From NCBI GenBank assembly GCA_024674815.1, contig GCA_024674815.1_4104.1: a stretch of DNA of 64,000 nt; one strand, given 5' to 3'. Position numbers and translations under genes: made by a program. The number at the start of each line of letters is the position of its first letter. The stretch's first letter is position 1. Below the pieces are notes generated by a model. The model was not told the origin of the DNA. It searched no databases and saw only the letters and a program-made list of their open reading frames with translations. This DNA comes from a phage. This document shows, one piece after another, positions 13,282 to 57,105 of this stretch.

Positions 13282-13923
13282 TCAATAAAAAACTGGATCT
13301 TCTTCAGTAATTGGTATTTCTCTACGCACATCACACGAAAGAGGATCAGTAATGAATACATTCCCATCTTTATCCATCATTACATTACTTGAATGAATGT
13401 CTGGTACAAAACGCCCGTGAAACTCTTTCATGATGTTAGCAGCGACCGTCGCAATAGCAATCTCTTCAGAATTACCACGCATATCATTCACTGAAGTAGC
13501 GTACTGACCAGCATGTGCATAAGAATATAAATCTCCAATTTTAGTACTAACAAAGTCATCATAATTATTTTTTTGTTTAATTATAGGATAGTACTTGTCC
13601 ATCTCATACCATCCAAAGTTTCCTTGTTCGTTGGCACTGTAGATCACTGGAAGAAACTTGGTTCCTGCGTTTTCAATGCAGTACTTTGCATAAGCACGAA
13701 AACCATCCCAGCGTGAAGTGGTTACTTTAAATGCACGTCCAGGATAGTTTTTATGTTCAACTACTACAGAGTACATCCCCATTCCAAGAAAAGTAAGTCC
13801 AGCAGCTTTAACTTGTGGAAAGATTACGCGTTCAGCATAAGGAATATCAAACTCCATCGCACAACGAGTTTTTGATGGACGCAAAATGTCAATTAAAGTT
13901 TTGAATATGTCTTGCTTAGTCAT
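13282..13923 (-). CDS. protein-kinase-like fold protein
   Basis: LGMGMYSVV (Gly-loop-like), AFKV, DIHSSNVMMDKDGNVFITDP (catalytic-loop-like); start set at Met preceded by GAGGA. Confidence 0.5.
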   Translation of the reverse strand: MTKQDIFKTLIDILRPSKTRCAMEFDIPYAERVIFPQVKAAGLTFLGMGMYSVVVEHKNYPGRAFKVTTSRWDGFRAYAKYCIENAGTKFLPVIYSANEQGNFGWYEMDKYYPIIKQKNNYDDFVSTKIGDLYSYAHAGQYATSVNDMRGNSEEIAIATVAANIMKEFHGRFVPDIHSSNVMMDKDGNVFITDPLSCDVRREIPITEEDPVFY

Positions 13924-13951: not shown

Positions 13952-13984
13952 ATCATAACAAAAAAGGCTGACCGAAGTCAACCC
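13952..13984 (-). promoter_or_regulatory. PeSL-like cassette (hairpin + weaker -10 TATGAT)
   Basis: ggctgaccgaagtcaaccc hairpin; TTGACT-17-TATGAT. Confidence 0.5.
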
Positions 13985-13992
13985 TTTTATTA

Positions 13993-14412
13993 TCATTTAC
14001 AGTTTTCTATAACTATTGCACGTTTTAGTATTTTACTTTCATAAACATACTTAAGATGACCTTCTTCACGAATACGATTGAACACATATCCTAGTTTATC
14101 TTTTAGTACTGAAGCGGTATCAATGTCAAGATTAACTTCAACCCCTCCTGTTAATTTAACTTTATATGTAAATCTAAAAGCATCACCAGATTCAACCAAT
14201 GGGACTACTTGTTCATACGTATTCAACATAACTCGTTCATCATTAACTAAATTATATATTACTATATCACAAGTTTTTACCCCAATTTCCTCTAATGTAG
14301 GAGCATTATCTACTATAACATCTTTTACTGTATTTGCAACCTGTTTAGCATCTGCTGCATATACATTAAAACTAAAAAGTACTAAAATAATACTTAAAAA
14401 AATCTTTTTCAT
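13993..14412 (-). CDS. secreted protein (signal peptide)
   Basis: N-terminus MKKIFLSIILVLFSFNVYA. Confidence 0.65.
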   Translation of the reverse strand: MKKIFLSIILVLFSFNVYAADAKQVANTVKDVIVDNAPTLEEIGVKTCDIVIYNLVNDERVMLNTYEQVVPLVESGDAFRFTYKVKLTGGVEVNLDIDTASVLKDKLGYVFNRIREEGHLKYVYESKILKRAIVIENCK

Positions 14413-14421
14413 TATATATCC

Positions 14422-14745
14422 TTATTTTATTTTACACGTCATATCGGGTTGTGCTTGTTTATTATTTTTAAACGGATTAGGTTTTTTATCTTTCTTTTTA
14501 TCTTTTAAAGGTTTTTTGTCTTCTTTTTTATCTTTATCTTTGTCTTTTTTATTTTTATCAGGTTCAGAGGGAGTATTACATTGTGCTGGGGGTTGATTAG
14601 TTGGAGTACAGCTATTGTCTGATGGGAGTATTACTTCTTTACAATTGTAAAATAGTAAACTTTTATTTGTGGTTAAATTATGAAAACGATAGTTACGTTC
14701 ATTATTATAATAAATTGTTTTAGTACTTTCAATGCCATTGCACAT
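14422..14745 (-). CDS. Lys/Asp-rich low-complexity protein
   Basis: KDKDKDKKEDKK tract; Cys-containing N-terminal part. Confidence 0.45.
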   Translation of the reverse strand: MCNGIESTKTIYYNNERNYRFHNLTTNKSLLFYNCKEVILPSDNSCTPTNQPPAQCNTPSEPDKNKKDKDKDKKEDKKPLKDKKKDKKPNPFKNNKQAQPDMTCKIK

Positions 14746-14755
14746 TGCTACTGAA

Positions 14756-15007
14756 TCACCGGAACTCTTTTTCTATTCCCATTACATCAGTCTTACGCTC
14801 AGATAGTATACCTGAAGTATATGAATCTTTGTTGTCAAACGCATTAAATCCAATAGTTCTGTCGGTGTCGTGTATTATTCCTTTTGTGTATGAGGTAGTA
14901 TAGAACTCCCCATTTCTGAAATCCTGCCTTGCTACGGAGCAATGATAATCTGCACCATAAGCAGTACTGGAAAATAATACAATTCCAAATATAATATATT
15001 TTTTCAT
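14756..15007 (-). CDS. small secreted protein
   Basis: Start set at MKKYIIFGIVLFSSTAYG with AGAGGGA SD. Confidence 0.55.
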   Translation of the reverse strand: MKKYIIFGIVLFSSTAYGADYHCSVARQDFRNGEFYTTSYTKGIIHDTDRTIGFNAFDNKDSYTSGILSERKTDVMGIEKEFR

Positions 15008-15050
15008 TGTAATCCCTCTTCTTAATTCCTCTTTTGTATTTACAAAAAAA

Positions 15051-15068
15051 GGCTGACCGAAGTCAACC
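15051..15068 (-). terminator. PeSL-type terminator hairpin
   Basis: ggctgaccgaagtcaacc, A-run before and T-run after in plus orientation. Confidence 0.6.
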
Positions 15069-15078
15069 TTTTGTTTTA

Positions 15079-16332
15079 TCATTTACCGTATTTGCTCATG
15101 ATGTCCTTTTCCCAAGGAGTTACATTTCCATTTTCGTAATCACGGAAAGAGTCATCAAGTGTAGTCAATGCATAATCATATGCCTCACCGGATTCAACAT
15201 CAATATCAACAGCACCATTCACTACATCAGTCCACGCTTTTTGTAGTTTACGAGCGTTGTTACCAACTTTATCTTTAATCCAACTAAGATTTCGGTTTAT
15301 ACTCTTCTTATCAGCACCAGCTTTTTCACCAACATCTGCAACCCATTGCATTAATTTCTGTAGTTCGTTATGGGATTTTTCAGTCATTTGGCGGTCTTGT
15401 GACAGTTCAGCTTCCATGTCATCAATTTCTTCGTCTGAATGAACATCGTTCTGTTCTACTGCACCTTCTTCATCATCACGCATCAGATAACCATCTCGTG
15501 TAACCTTCTCACCATGATCAGCTTCATACTTTTTCATAGTATTGAATGCAGCATCCATTGCAGTTACAAAACGACTCTTTTCACCTTGTACATAAGATTT
15601 AAGTGCATCGTTAACTGCATCAGATACTAATTTAATCTTATCGTCTTTACCTTCCAGACGGTTTTCTAACTTAGCTAGTACATTCTTAACTTTTTGAGCA
15701 TTAGCACGGTCTTCTTTACCAATACTATCAAATGTTTTAAGTACGCTTTCAAGACTTACTTCCTCTTGTGCAGGCACATCACCTTGTTGCGTACCTTCAA
15801 GTGCACGCATTATAGTACTGAATACTTCAGTTGGTTCAGTACTGGTATTTCCACTCATTGCATCAAGCACAGCTTGTGCTTTGACTTTTAATTCTTCTTT
15901 AGGTACAGATTGCAATTCTTTCACAATACCTTGGATAAGTTGTGGTTTATTAGCAAAAATCTTACCTAACTTATCCGACAGTTCTTTGACAGGGTTAACC
16001 GCCTTTGGTGCTTCTTGTTTTGGTTCTTCTTTAGCAGGAGCAGATTTTTCTTTTTCTTCACGTTCCATATCAGCTAGGCGTTGTTTTTGTGTAGCATTAA
16101 GAAGTCCCAATGAATTAACATAACGTAGCTTTTCTAGCTCAGTCATGTTCTCAGTACTCTTAACTTCACCTGCTTCTGCGTTTGCTTTACCAGCTAGACC
16201 AGTTCCTTGGTTACGTGATCCACGTGAACCTTGACCTGCTTGATAACTATTTGGACGGCGGTTGCGTTCACTCCATTTATCAGAGTGACCAGCCATGTTA
16301 CCACCATTTTTATCAGTAAAATTACTTGGCAT
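15079..16332 (-). CDS. large charged hypothetical protein (paralog of 16602..16985)
   Basis: Shares LRYVNSLGLL and KEL-x-VPKEELKVKA segments with 16602..16985; start set at Met after GGAGAG. Confidence 0.6.
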   Translation of the reverse strand: MPSNFTDKNGGNMAGHSDKWSERNRRPNSYQAGQGSRGSRNQGTGLAGKANAEAGEVKSTENMTELEKLRYVNSLGLLNATQKQRLADMEREEKEKSAPAKEEPKQEAPKAVNPVKELSDKLGKIFANKPQLIQGIVKELQSVPKEELKVKAQAVLDAMSGNTSTEPTEVFSTIMRALEGTQQGDVPAQEEVSLESVLKTFDSIGKEDRANAQKVKNVLAKLENRLEGKDDKIKLVSDAVNDALKSYVQGEKSRFVTAMDAAFNTMKKYEADHGEKVTRDGYLMRDDEEGAVEQNDVHSDEEIDDMEAELSQDRQMTEKSHNELQKLMQWVADVGEKAGADKKSINRNLSWIKDKVGNNARKLQKAWTDVVNGAVDIDVESGEAYDYALTTLDDSFRDYENGNVTPWEKDIMSKYGK

Positions 16333-16392
16333 TTGATTTCTCTCCATAGATTTCATTTTTTCTCTATGTCTATATTTATAGTATAAAGAAAA

Positions 16393-16410
16393 GGCTGACC
16401 GAAGTCAACC
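16393..16410 (-). terminator. PeSL-type terminator hairpin
   Basis: ggctgaccgaagtcaacc plus flanking U-run on minus strand. Confidence 0.55.
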
Positions 16411-16418
16411 TTATTTTG

Positions 16419-16532
16419 TTACTTAGATTGTTCTTGTGCAGGTGGATTTACTTTTTGATCCACTACATAGAATACACCACCAACCAGTACTGCGGCGATG
16501 AGTGCAGCAACTACAAATTTCAAACCTTGCAT
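16419..16532 (-). CDS. 37-aa single-TM mini-protein (below ORF-track cutoff)
   Basis: MQGLKFVVAALIAAVLVGGVFYVVDQ...; GAGGT SD; flanked by two PeSL hairpins. Confidence 0.4.
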   Translation of the reverse strand: MQGLKFVVAALIAAVLVGGVFYVVDQKVNPPAQEQSK

Positions 16533-16561
16533 ATATGATACCTCAGTTATATTGAGAATTT

Positions 16562-16595
16562 ATGATACAACAAAGGGCTGACCTTAGTCAACCCC
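16562..16595 (-). promoter_or_regulatory. PeSL-like cassette, variant loop
   Basis: gggctgaccttagtcaacccc hairpin; TTGACT-18-TATCAT. Confidence 0.5.
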
Positions 16596-16601
16596 TTTTT
16601 A

Positions 16602-16985
16602 TTACTTCTTGAACTTATGTTTTTCACTTTCGATTGCATTCACGATTTCATCATGAATTTTACGAAGATTGTGAGTTTTCTTTAGAGATTCATGTAATGC
16701 ACGGAATGCAGAGTGTACAGTTGCTTTAAAGTGCTCTTTAGGAGTTACTTTAAGTTTCTCGATAATATCACGTACATAGATTGGGTGATCCTCAAACACA
16801 CGATTAAGCTCATGACCTAGTGATTCTAGGCTAAATGCTTTTTCACGGGATGGACGATCATGTGCAAGACTTTGGTCTGGTTTTAGAAGACCTAGTGAAT
16901 CTAGATACTTGTGCTTATGTGCATTGTCTAGACCAGAAATATCAACATCATGTGATGGATCTTTCTTATTCCATTTATCAACCAT
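16602..16985 (-). CDS. hypothetical protein (paralog of 15079..16332)
   Basis: HKYLDSLGLLKPDQ and KLKVTPKEHFKATV motifs shared. Confidence 0.6.
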   Translation of the reverse strand: MVDKWNKKDPSHDVDISGLDNAHKHKYLDSLGLLKPDQSLAHDRPSREKAFSLESLGHELNRVFEDHPIYVRDIIEKLKVTPKEHFKATVHSAFRALHESLKKTHNLRKIHDEIVNAIESEKHKFKK

Positions 16986-17100
16986 TTTTATAACTCCTAT
17001 AAGAGATAAATTTTACTATAATATTTATAGTTCCGTTGTCATTTATATCGAATGACATAAAACATTATATCATAATAAGAATGGTTGTCCCAAAGTTAAA

Positions 17101-19804: not shown

Positions 19805-19836
19805 ATTATAACAAAAAAGGCTGACCGAAGTCAACC
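19805..19836 (-). promoter_or_regulatory. PeSL-like cassette (terminator hairpin + promoter)
   Basis: ggctgaccgaagtcaacc hairpin; TTGACT-18-TATAAT. Confidence 0.6.
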
Positions 19837-28278: not shown

Positions 28279-28296
28279 GGTTGGCATAAGCCAACC
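28279..28296 (-). terminator. Rho-independent terminator after sigma-factor gene
   Basis: ggttggcataagccaacc hairpin followed by U-run on minus strand. Confidence 0.65.
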
Positions 28297-56650: not shown

Positions 56651-57105
56651 TTCACCACCATTGGATTTTGCGACTGTATATTAAAAAGGGATAATACAAA
56701 AGTACTCAATTTTTCGAAACAATCTACTAATACATTTAACTCATCATAACTAACACCAATTTCACGAATAAGCGATTGTTGAAAGAATCCTTCTTCGGTT
56801 AACGTTAAACTACTAACCTCAGTTATGTTATAATAACTTTGGGATGTTGTGGTTGATATTAGTTGTATTGCAATCGTATCTGATGTTGTGTTGTACAGAT
56901 ATAAATATTTTGTTTTTCTTTCCAATGGATCTATACATGAAAGATCGATCATGTCATAGGTTTTTCCAATAAAAATATTACAATCATCTGACAATTCACA
57001 ACAAATGCGTATATGTTCTTTCGGGTCATGAACACGTTGTGTGTCAAATTCACATGACATTGCAATTTCAAAATGATTTTTTATTTCGTCAACATTCATC
57101 CGCAC
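56644..57105 (-). CDS. EE-FQ-S motif family paralog
   Basis: C-terminal TEEGFFQQSLIREIGVSYDE. Confidence 0.65.
   Translation of the reverse strand: MRMNVDEIKNHFEIAMSCEFDTQRVHDPKEHIRICCELSDDCNIFIGKTYDMIDLSCIDPLERKTKYLYLYNTTSDTIAIQLISTTTSQSYYNITEVSSLTLTEEGFFQQSLIREIGVSYDELNVLVDCFEKLSTFVLSLFNIQSQNPMVVKC

Follow-up and report, generated by a model that had tools for sequence, protein, structure and literature searches.

Promoter-early stem-loops (PeSLs) are regulatory elements described in T4-like phages, including those of the nt-1/KVP40 type (PMC2839356; PMC4122927). In the published design a terminator stem-loop lies just upstream of a sigma-70 promoter, which is followed by the Shine-Dalgarno sequence and start codon of the downstream gene. 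The locus encoding the T4 internal proteins has been cited as a PeSL-like case: these proteins (IPI, IPII, IPIII and Alt) are small, charged and carried in the virion. Their genes belong to a hyperplastic region separate from the morphogenesis cluster, and conserved regulatory sequences on their flanks are the means by which they are shuffled between related phages. A second point of comparison is the inner body of phiKZ, whose proteins are paralogous, hydrophilic and helical. The literature that we found on PeSL-type cassettes covers T4-like phages only, with no earlier description for the Rak2-like lineage.

The locus considered here lies in a 64,000-nucleotide stretch of phage DNA (the window) from an Asteriusvirus (Rak2-like) jumbo phage of E. 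coli, with 100% identity to JP4 and 99.7% to phAPEC6. This phage has only distant T4-like core genes in common with T4-type phages; its group possesses homologues of gp20, gp21 and gp23. Three ORFs were confirmed, all on the minus strand (15079-16332, 16419-16532 and 16602-16985), corresponding to the GenBank CDSs gp035c, gp036c and gp037c of phAPEC6 and gp201, gp200 and gp199 of 121Q. Together with their flanking sequences they form a small hyperplastic region of the Asteriusvirus genome, the features of which are as follows.

16602..16985, minus strand: short paralogue, 127 aa; phAPEC6 gp037c / 121Q gp199; virion protein.
15079..16332, minus strand: long paralogue, 417 aa; phAPEC6 gp035c / 121Q gp201; virion protein.
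16419..16532, minus strand: mini-gene for a 37-aa predicted single-pass membrane peptide; phAPEC6 gp036c / 121Q gp200.
15787..16332, minus strand: part of the long gene (aa 1-182) encoding the module in common with the short paralogue (hhalign, phrog_16530).
16562..16600, minus strand: PeSL-type element 1; predicted terminator hairpin of the short gene, overlapping a sigma-70-like promoter of the mini-gene.
16373..16412, minus strand: PeSL-type element 2; predicted terminator hairpin of the mini-gene, with -35 and -10 boxes and overlapping a late promoter.
15051..15068, minus strand: predicted terminator hairpin of the long gene; UUCG loop and 7-U tail; same repeat family as elements 1 and 2.
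17064..17093, minus strand: putative sigma-70-like promoter upstream of the short gene, from a consensus scan.
17022..17029, minus strand: putative T4-type late promoter box TATAAATA of the short gene, 36 nt upstream of the ATG.

An earlier note, made from the sequence alone, had described this locus as a paralogous pair of charged proteins flanking a hairpin-bounded membrane mini-gene. That observation as a whole is borne out, and the explanation that we favour, at a probability of about 0.8, combines duplicated virion genes, PeSL-type hairpins, an insulated early mini-gene and an exchangeable slot.

Sequence comparison identifies the 417-aa and 127-aa proteins as true, diverged paralogues of one lineage-specific virion protein. 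BLASTP aligns residues 67-183 of the long protein with residues 23-123 of the short (24% identity over 119 residues, E = 4e-8), including both of the motif pairs that the earlier note had quoted as shared. That note had proposed pairwise alignment and a profile search as its test, with a lack of significant similarity counting against the pair; both returned significant similarity. The two proteins are charged, as claimed (~33-35% of residues in each), and from this, together with an identity of merely 24% over 119 residues, it could be argued that their likeness is a compositional artefact of charged, helical, low-complexity sequences with no homology behind it. We consider this reading refuted and its probability negligible. 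Composition-preserving shuffles give z = 7.8-8.7, the observed Smith-Waterman score of 79 (35.6 +/- 5.6 in shuffles) being reached in 0 of 2000, and hhalign profile-profile comparison places residues 1-122 of the short protein on residues 1-182 of the long with 99.6% probability (E = 1.5e-24). Both proteins, moreover, match one PHROG at about 1e-38 or better, namely phrog_16530 (3.6e-56 for the short protein; 5.1e-38 for the long, over residues 1-180); phrog_20398 is matched by the long protein at 1.6e-179 and by the short at 1.3e-3. With HMM matches ranging from 1e-38 to 1e-179, the window proteins are direct members of the phrog_16530 / phrog_20398 family, which includes CBB_38, GAP32_032, BF gp027, RaK2 ORF275 and 121Q gp199/gp201, and within which the long and short proteins are bridged by the intermediate form P0013 and by single-copy orthologues.

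The single-copy state is seen in relatives of the CBB, BF and GAP32 type, where one gene encodes a protein of ~155-172 aa; it is by duplication of this gene, with later divergence, that the 127-aa and 417-aa genes arose. Their common module has a disordered, Arg/Gly-rich N-terminus, followed by an EKLxYxxSLGLL helix and then by a linker leading into a 4-helix bundle. From the short copy a 29-aa Arg/Gly-rich segment has disappeared, and in AF2 models this copy consists of a helix at residues 21-30 and a 4-helix bundle at 53-126. The long copy, modelled as all-helical with a disordered N-terminus, carries additional C-terminal helical modules whose number varies between strains: among near-identical phages, whole ~90-aa modules have been gained or lost, giving lengths from 413 to 606 aa. 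Its start was placed at 16332, a position preceded at 9 nt by a GGAG site and at which M1-P2 is invariant in homologues. An upstream ATG at 16356 (giving 425 aa) was rejected as the start, Met-Pro being the invariant N-terminus and the extension not being conserved in UB.

An exhaustive profile search of 1.84 billion representative proteins recovered only 34 clusters, all belonging to one family, and it is on this basis that we describe the family as restricted to its lineage. No distant relative of known function was found in that library, nor was either protein matched in PDB profile searches, Pfam or NCBIfam, and Foldseek comparison of the two AF2 models with the PDB gave nothing below E = 0.8. 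The label 'SMC / chromosome segregation protein' attached to phAPEC6 gp035c was rejected, there being no Pfam or NCBIfam match above noise and the model consisting of helical bundles without a nucleotide-binding fold. We found no earlier statement in the literature consulted of the relationship between the short and long proteins, whether duplication, loss of the RG-rich segment or gain of C-terminal modules.

That both are virion proteins comes from published proteomics. ESI-MS/MS of phAPEC6 virions detected gp037c (5 peptides, 48% coverage) and gp035c (8 peptides, 28.8% coverage) (PMC7247149), the proteins detected being 99.8-100% identical to those of the window, and the orthologue CBB_38 is likewise present in virions by MS (PMC5259590). 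We infer that the common module is what brings both proteins into the particle.

As to where in the particle they reside, our guess is that the two paralogues are most likely packaged head-internal proteins. Like the T4 internal proteins, the window pair are small, charged and virion-carried, with genes that lie outside the morphogenesis cluster in a hyperplastic region, but there is no similarity of sequence or fold and the likeness is one of analogy, not membership. The same is true of phiKZ: 121Q and phAPEC6 possess a phiKZ-like inner body, but phAPEC6 has no homologues of the phiKZ inner-body proteins and the window pair show no homology to them. Searches of Pfam, NCBIfam, the PDB and Foldseek found no homology to either group, and neither a conserved L/I-x-E prohead-protease site nor a capsid-targeting sequence is recognisable in the alignments. 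The RaK2, 121Q and Sharanji papers are silent on where these proteins reside, on promoters and on transcripts, and no more recent cryo-EM work on an Asteriusvirus came to light.

It is unlikely, though it deserves serious consideration, that the proteins are instead external, forming a capsid cement or decoration layer or the hair-like fibres of capsid and tail. In phAPEC6 an elongated capsid-surface protein, the capsid fibres and the tail hairs have no MS assignment, and the short protein, itself of small size, has good MS coverage. The decoration genes of T4 likewise sit outside the head gene cluster. On the other hand, the gain and loss of ~90-aa modules in the long protein is ill-suited to a component of a lattice, the models of helical bundles and disordered linkers are neither fibre-like nor beta-rich and both genes lie in an accessory hyperplastic region. 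None of these points against an external position is decisive. The head-internal reading can also be taken further, to parts of the Asteriusvirus inner body or an ejected set of internal proteins, in which the N-terminal module would act in targeting, the C-terminal modules would be exchangeable cargo delivered to the host and PeSL-type elements would shuffle the locus as at the T4 internal-protein locus; taken as a whole this more detailed scheme is speculative and rather improbable.

Turning to the sequences between the genes, the hairpins at 16576-16593 and 16393-16410 were confirmed. On the minus strand the hairpin reads GGTTGAC-UUCG-GUCAGCC followed by a U-run, and the motif occurs eight times in the window (0.01 expected), always in one orientation and between 6.7 and 19.8 kb; Asteriusvirus genomes carry it at 8-10 places each. 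Directly past each stop codon come a stem of 9-11 bp with a 4-nt loop and the U-run. In silico, the three hairpins of the locus have fold energies of -12.4 to -18.3 kcal/mol (z -4.6 to -5.5), folding being stronger on the minus (coding) strand owing to a G-U pair. That of element 1 (core 16576-16593, loop UAAG) folds most stably, with -18.3 kcal/mol for the minus strand versus -9.7 for the plus; that of element 2 (core 16393-16410) has a UUCG loop and a fold energy of -12.4 kcal/mol, and the long-gene hairpin at 15051-15068 one of -14.8 kcal/mol. The hairpins on minus-strand RNA are best described as predicted intrinsic terminators. The G17 record annotates the element 1 hairpin as a terminator, the long-gene hairpin is so annotated in both G17 and UE-S1 and the element 2 junction is conserved in UE-S1, fEgEco12, JNE01 and Turkey5. 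A sub-threshold match to Rfam MicX spanning hairpin to hairpin (23 bits, the gathering score being 75) was set aside as an artefact.

The hairpins also contain promoter-like sequence. A -35 box, TTGACT, occupies stem and loop; 17-18 nt further downstream comes a -10 box, and beyond it lie a Shine-Dalgarno sequence and a start codon. In element 1 the -35 box (16586-16591) is separated by an 18-nt spacer from a -10 box of sequence TATCAT (16562-16567), and in element 2 (-35 box at 16403-16408) a 17-nt spacer leads to a -10-like TATACT (16380-16385); four further copies have a perfect TTGACT-18-TATAAT. Each gene, we propose, would thus end in a copy of one repeated hairpin that acts as a terminator in RNA and supplies a -35 box in DNA.

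The name PeSL, which the earlier note had applied to these hairpins, fits them well as composites of terminator and sigma-70 promoter. Like PeSLs, they combine a terminator-capable stem-loop after the upstream gene (in silico), a sigma-70-like promoter joined to it (by motif) and, at the 3' end, the Shine-Dalgarno sequence and start codon of the downstream gene; they share the stem pattern A-run/G3 ... C3/T-run; and they occur as many near-identical, conserved copies clustered among the small accessory genes of hyperplastic regions. Close relatives differ by insertions, deletions and replacements with breakpoints in the elements, the neighbouring cassette included. The similarity extends to the sequence itself, the 18-nt core GGTTGACTTCGGTCAGCC being identical to copies in KVP40-group (Schizotequatrovirus) Vibrio phages, the group from which PeSLs of the nt-1/KVP40 type are known. 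The two differ in that the -35 box lies inside the window stem-loop instead of beyond it, in that a T4-type late promoter is built into one copy (element 2), which serves a virion gene, and in that the window phage is an Asteriusvirus and not T4-like.

Might the hairpins nevertheless be plain intrinsic terminators, their TTGAC incidental, and the mini-gene promoterless and read late from the late promoter of the short gene? The off-consensus TATCAT before the mini-gene would suit such a reading, as would the interruption of the U-tract past hairpin 16576 (CCCUUUGUUGU); ARNOLD-based annotations label the hairpins as terminators only, and a generic sigma-70 scan of this AT-rich region finds 38 promoter-like sites, no richer than the 37.4 in shuffles. 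The composite TTGACT-N18-TATAAT-like pattern, however, is strongly enriched (9 versus 1.6 expected), six of the nine lying in hairpin copies at constant spacing. In addition, a TATAAT with no mismatch stands at the same spacing in the sister allele of the mini-gene, the published PeSLs are of the same design and hairpin 16576 is the most stable of the three. We therefore think it quite unlikely that the hairpins only terminate. Were they to do so, the mini-gene might encode a membrane peptide associated with lysis or assembly. In the composite reading that we prefer, the promoter half of the upstream hairpin would drive the mini-gene and the mini-gene's own hairpin would stop transcription; having its own promoter and its own terminator, it would therefore be transcriptionally insulated between two late genes. 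Late read-through may contribute to its expression, because TATCAT is imperfect and the element 1 U-tract is interrupted.

For the virion genes themselves, late promoters of sequence ATAAATA have been described in Rak2-like phages (PMC5259590), and a gp55-like sigma factor has been reported for phAPEC6 and CBB, alongside the late ATAAATA motif published for the phage group. The box TATAAATA is depleted in the window (3 in 64 kb, versus 12.6 expected), and both minus-strand copies lie upstream of the two virion genes, that of the long gene at 16373-16380, where element 2 overlaps it. Each is positioned as in T4-type late promoters, with the box ~25-45 nt upstream of the start of a virion gene, and the box is conserved upstream of the orthologues of both genes, including those of RaK2 and RCIP0023. 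The third copy, at 56900 on the plus strand, falls within a minus-strand ORF, is not followed by any plus-strand gene and was treated as a chance occurrence. The short gene is also preceded by a predicted sigma-70-like promoter, TTGGGA-18-TATAAT with a TG before the -10 box (10 of 12 consensus matches), whose -10 box is conserved in fEgEco12 and JNE01. Both virion proteins would accordingly be made from T4-type late promoters and probably also from weaker sigma-70-type promoters; as with the terminators, activity and expression timing at the locus are predicted from motifs.

The 37-aa ORF between the two hairpins is hydrophobic, as the earlier note had stated, with one predicted transmembrane helix at residues 6-24. 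The same note's remark that an ORF length cutoff had missed it holds for that reader's own cutoff and not for the field, since all related records annotate the gene. A PHROG of its own exists for it (phrog_35037, E = 2e-29), and a GAGG Shine-Dalgarno sequence lies 9 nt before the ATG at 16532, a layout common to all eight hairpin copies. When both alleles were used as tblastn queries, the window type was found in 20 records and a second type in nine. The two are of equal length and have the same transmembrane helix and Shine-Dalgarno sequence, with 59% amino acid identity and 38% of nucleotides differing; most of the changes are either synonymous or conservative (pS 0.69, pN 0.29, dN/dS ~0.2). 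By this comparison of alleles, the mini-gene is real and evidently under purifying selection.

Its extreme shortness, and the absence of its product from the 62 virion proteins found by MS, might be taken to mean that the ORF arose by chance within an intergenic spacer; the 100% identity of most copies is in itself uninformative. Chance is very improbable given a second allele so diverged in nucleotides with so low a dN/dS, and a PHROG, promoter-like element and terminator of its own. In fEgEco12, furthermore, the mini-gene leads a three-gene operon of membrane or secreted proteins. We take it to be a genuine gene for a membrane peptide, probably a non-essential and early one.

The earlier note had also called the mini-gene a cassette, and comparison of close relatives agrees: their slot is either empty or occupied by other small genes, with breakpoints inside the hairpins. 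UE-S1 has an empty slot with a single hairpin, and it also lacks the adjoining second hairpin-bounded cassette of three genes. In the window the hairpin-to-hairpin unit measures 183 bp. In fEgEco12, JNE01, Turkey5 and EC.P1 the cargo differs from that of the window; across the relatives other than UE-S1, the slot is filled by genes of 37+87+98 aa, 101+28 aa or 25+28 aa, or by a gene of 257 aa, or has gained an HNH gene. These patterns suggest that recombination between near-identical hairpins makes the slot exchangeable. Such recombination would not be the sole source of variation, because UB has no second hairpin, and endonuclease-type genes are present in EC.P1, in PHA46 and in UB itself; homing endonuclease genes, it appears, may now and then land in the slot too.

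The novelty here is modest: this is a known kind of regulatory cassette in a lineage for which we found no description of it, and ordinary, annotated phage biology that does not overturn current understanding. What it adds is an extension of PeSL-type cassettes, their core sequence identical, to the jumbo phages of the Rak2-like group, and a domain logic for a virion protein family in which a common N-terminal module is joined to variable cargo, making these proteins reasonable candidates for the internal head contents of 121Q and phAPEC6. The locus also offers a clean and compact example of how a jumbo phage may nest an early accessory gene amid late virion genes, here one on either side and all three on the same strand, in which a single 40-bp element would terminate transcription, initiate it and act as a recombination handle.

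The region 14900-17100 is identical (100%) in nucleotide comparison to Escherichia phage JP4, 99.5-99.9% identical to E9.1, phAPEC6 and SP27, and 90-96% identical to 121Q, PBECO4, G17 and slurp01, all of which are Asteriusvirus, Rak2-like jumbo myoviruses of ~350 kb. Every gene in the region lies on the minus strand, and the features are as follows:

17022-17029 (-), TATAAATA box, 36 nt upstream of the short-gene ATG
16602-16985 (-), short gene, 127 aa
16576 (-), hairpin at the end of the short gene
16419-16532 (-), 37-aa mini-gene, in the slot between the short and long genes
16393 (-), hairpin at the end of the mini-gene
16373-16380 (-), TATAAATA box, 40 nt upstream of the long-gene ATG
15079-16332 (-), long gene, 417 aa
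13966-15068 (-), neighbouring cassette: genes 14756-15007, 14422-14745 and 13993-14412 (together 13993-15007), between hairpins 15051-15068 and 13966-13983

The three ORFs of the slot and its flanks lie where the earlier note had put them and are the same as annotated CDSs in relatives (phAPEC6 gp035c/036c/037c; 121Q gp201/200/199; G17_00112-114), the computed masses of the long and short proteins (46.39 and 14.83 kDa) being those tabulated for phAPEC6. The long protein starts at 16332, a start preceded at 9 nt by a GGAG site and coding for a Met-Pro that is invariant in 23 homologues; an alternative ATG upstream, at 16356, was rejected because phage UB does not conserve it. Downstream, the start of phAPEC6 gp034c, like that of the longest ORF at this place in the window (14756-15082; phAPEC6 locus L003, 3857-4183), reaches over the terminator hairpin, and G17 and 121Q annotate a shorter equivalent with start MKKYIIFG (15007) that better fits the Shine-Dalgarno site. 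Directly downstream of the cassette array lies a gene for a T7 gp0.7-like protein kinase (13282-13923), so annotated in 121Q, G17 and phAPEC6.

That the flanking proteins are paralogues, as claimed from two pairs of shared motifs, is borne out by both pairwise alignment and profile search. BLASTP aligns long residues 67-183 with short residues 23-123 (24% identity, E = 4e-8), with both motif pairs inside the alignment, and none of 2000 composition-preserving shuffles reaches the real score (z = 7.8-8.7). Both proteins match phrog_16530 (long 5e-38, short 4e-56), and profile-profile comparison of the two families pairs short 1-122 with long 1-182 at 99.6% probability (E = 1.5e-24).

The history of the pair can be read from relatives with a single gene. 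CBB, GAP32, Serratia phage BF, Yersinia fHe-Yen9-04 and Erwinia phages carry one gene of ~155-172 aa, 35-40% identical to residues 1-180 of the long protein and ~32% to the short; metagenomic P0013 (171 aa) has an Arg/Gly-rich N-terminus of the long type and a C-terminus of the short type; and RaK2 and K64-1 have the long form alone (~565 aa). From these forms, the short copy is the ancestral module without a 29-residue segment (RRxNSxxAGQGSRGSRNQGTGxAGKAN), and the long copy is that module with C-terminal helical domains added. The number of these domains varies even among near-identical phages (413-425, 495-517, up to 606 aa), whole in-frame modules being gained or lost: the long protein has 417 aa in the window and phAPEC6, 495-517 aa in 121Q, G17 and UB, with a ~90-aa insert after 'DEEGAVEQ', and 606 aa in JNE01. 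In Serratia phage BF (locus L004, 3342-4082), a single tblastn match to the long protein runs through the annotated gp027 stop into gp028, perhaps because the gene is split, because of a sequencing error, or through read-through. The family is lineage-restricted, given that only 34 clusters came out of an exhaustive HMM search covering 1.84 billion representative proteins.

Both paralogues are virion proteins. Purified phAPEC6 particles yielded 62 proteins, among them gp035c (8 peptides, 28.8% coverage) and gp037c (5 peptides, 48% coverage) (PMC7247149), and the single-copy orthologue CBB_38 was likewise detected in the virion (9 peptides, 56.6% coverage) (PMC5259590). AlphaFold gives all-helical models for both: in the short protein, a helix at 21-30 and a four-helix bundle at 53-126 (pLDDT 69); in the long protein, three helical blocks after a disordered N-terminal stretch, residues 1-56 (pLDDT 72, pTM 0.31). 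Neither gave a significant match to PDB (by Foldseek or sequence profiles), Pfam or NCBIfam. The label 'chromosome segregation protein' in the phAPEC6 record is unsupported. As to their place in the particle, heads of 121Q and phAPEC6 enclose a phiKZ-like inner body, and both phages have unassigned capsid-surface and fibre proteins. We tentatively favour packaged, probably head-internal proteins, because of their charged helical and disordered composition, their site in an accessory region and their tolerance of whole-module indels; an external position is a live rival. A bolder and less likely reading would count them among the internal head contents of these phages, as parts of the inner body or of an ejected protein set.

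The hairpin motif GGCTGACCNNAGTCAACC occurs eight times in the 64-kb window, in a single orientation, against 0.01 expected. The minus (coding) strand reads GGUUGAC-UUCG-GUCAGCC, flanked by an A-run on the 5' side and a U-run on the 3' side. Because of a G-U pair in the stem, RNA from this strand is predicted to fold far more stably (-18.3, -12.4 and -14.8 kcal/mol) than RNA from the plus strand (-9.7 and -8.7). Every copy lies directly 3' of a stop codon, and the G17 and UE-S1 records annotate the hairpins as terminators. Alignment of the copies points to a further, promoter role: TTGACT in the stem and loop is followed exactly 18 nt on by a -10 hexamer (TATGAT at 13966, TATCAT at 16576), then by a Shine-Dalgarno site and start codon. 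Four copies (6695-6712, 8113-8130, 9395-9412 and 19819-19836) have a perfect TTGACT-18-TATAAT, each followed by Shine-Dalgarno and ATG; a variant lies at 28279-28296, and the composite copies line up as a regular series of terminator/promoter units within an early-gene region. With up to one mismatch, TTGACT-N18-TATAAT occurs nine times against 1.6 expected, six of the nine being hairpin copies.

Such a composite layout defines PeSLs, the promoter-early stem-loops of T4-like phages (PMC2839356, PMC4122927), and the hairpin fits the published nt-1/KVP40 stem (A3-4G3-loop-C3T3-4). A 40-nt query from the element is multi-copy in Asteriusvirus (8-10 places per genome), in other Rak2-like phages and in KVP40-group Vibrio phages. 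Together with the A/T runs and an equally spaced -10 box, the 18-nt core GGTTGACTTCGGTCAGCC recurs unchanged after rIIB in phi-pp2 (locus L016, 401-438) and after DNA ligase in Vibrio phage D525 (locus L017, 401-439). Design, core identity and stem together make the PeSL label apt, although this phage, unlike classic PeSL carriers, is not T4-type; the shared core may reflect either convergence or horizontal spread. The observation is confirmed and its interpretation essentially right. The genes, virion proteins and terminators had been annotated before and PeSLs are a known class; in the literature consulted we found neither an explicit short/long duplication history, nor any account of these hairpins as composite elements in Rak2-like jumbo phages, nor their identity to KVP40-type elements.

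The mini-gene product, MQGLKFVVAALIAAVLVGGVFYVVDQKVNPPAQEQSK, has one transmembrane helix (residues 6-24) and a polar tail, and matches its own PHROG (E = 2e-29). The gene is real, as the earlier note proposed, but has not been overlooked, since related records annotate it. By tblastn, the window allele occurs in 20 phage records and a second 37-aa allele in nine; the two are 62% identical in nucleotides and 59% in amino acids (pS 0.69, pN 0.29), and the resulting dN/dS of ~0.2 places the ORF under purifying selection. It is dispensable, being absent from UE-S1 and ph0011; our guess for its function is an accessory one, host-membrane or superinfection-related. This slot is hyperplastic, its contents differing between close relatives as follows:

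Contents of the slot between the short and long genes
UE-S1: empty, single hairpin
Window, 121Q, G17: 37-aa gene
fEgEco12: 37-aa gene, 87-aa multi-pass membrane protein, 98-aa secreted protein
EC.P1: the fEgEco12 set and an HNH/NUMOD4 endonuclease
JNE01: 101-aa secreted protein, 28-aa transmembrane peptide
Turkey5: 25-aa and 28-aa transmembrane peptides
UB: 257-aa zinc-finger ORF

Among close relatives the flanks are conserved as far as the hairpins, where conservation ends and cargo differs, which bears out the cassette character ascribed to the mini-gene. UE-S1 also lacks all three genes of the neighbouring cassette (two of which open with a hydrophobic, signal-peptide-like N-terminus), so that a single hairpin separates its long gene from the kinase gene, and the junction in its slot resembles the product of a crossover in the GGTTGAC arm. 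Variation in slot and cassette matches modular shuffling by PeSLs; a second route of change is also at work, as shown by the endonuclease genes that some slots hold. Endonuclease-type genes lie just downstream of the short gene in EC.P1 (HNH/NUMOD4; L015, 1662-2189), Salmonella phage PHA46 (HNH; L006, 3948-4907) and UB (the zinc-finger ORF, treble-clef; L009, 3267-4040).

The promoters suggest that slot and flanks differ in timing. Hairpin 16576 supplies TTGACT-18-TATCAT as the predicted mini-gene promoter, and the other slot allele has a perfect TATAAT ahead of the gene. Hairpin 16393 carries TTGACT-17-TATACT, overlapping by one base the TATAAATA box at 16373-16380, and a conserved TTGGGA-18-TATAAT with TG extension stands ahead of the box at 17022-17029. 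TATAAATA is the T4 late-promoter box, and for Rak2-like phages a gp55-like sigma factor has been published, as has an ATAAATA late motif ahead of structural genes (PMC5259590). The octamer is depleted in the whole window (3 against 12.6 +/- 3.3 expected), which fits a selective cost of stray late promoters. Its two minus-strand copies sit ahead of just those two genes that code for the virion proteins; the third (56900-56907, plus strand) lies inside a minus-strand ORF and was set aside. The box is kept upstream of orthologues in fEgEco12, JNE01, UB, RCIP0023 and RaK2. Upstream of CBB_38 (locus L010, ~2390-2500) and BF gp027 (locus L004, ~3230-3340) there is no ATAAATA late box; TTGACA-18-TATAAT lies there inside a different inverted repeat (aatcccctaa...ttaggggatt). 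In CBB and BF the virion protein may be made from a host-type promoter. For the window, an early mini-gene and late virion genes is the most economical reading: expression of the mini-gene would be confined to the early phase, that of the virion genes would be late, possibly both early and late, and the hairpins would hold these temporal classes apart.
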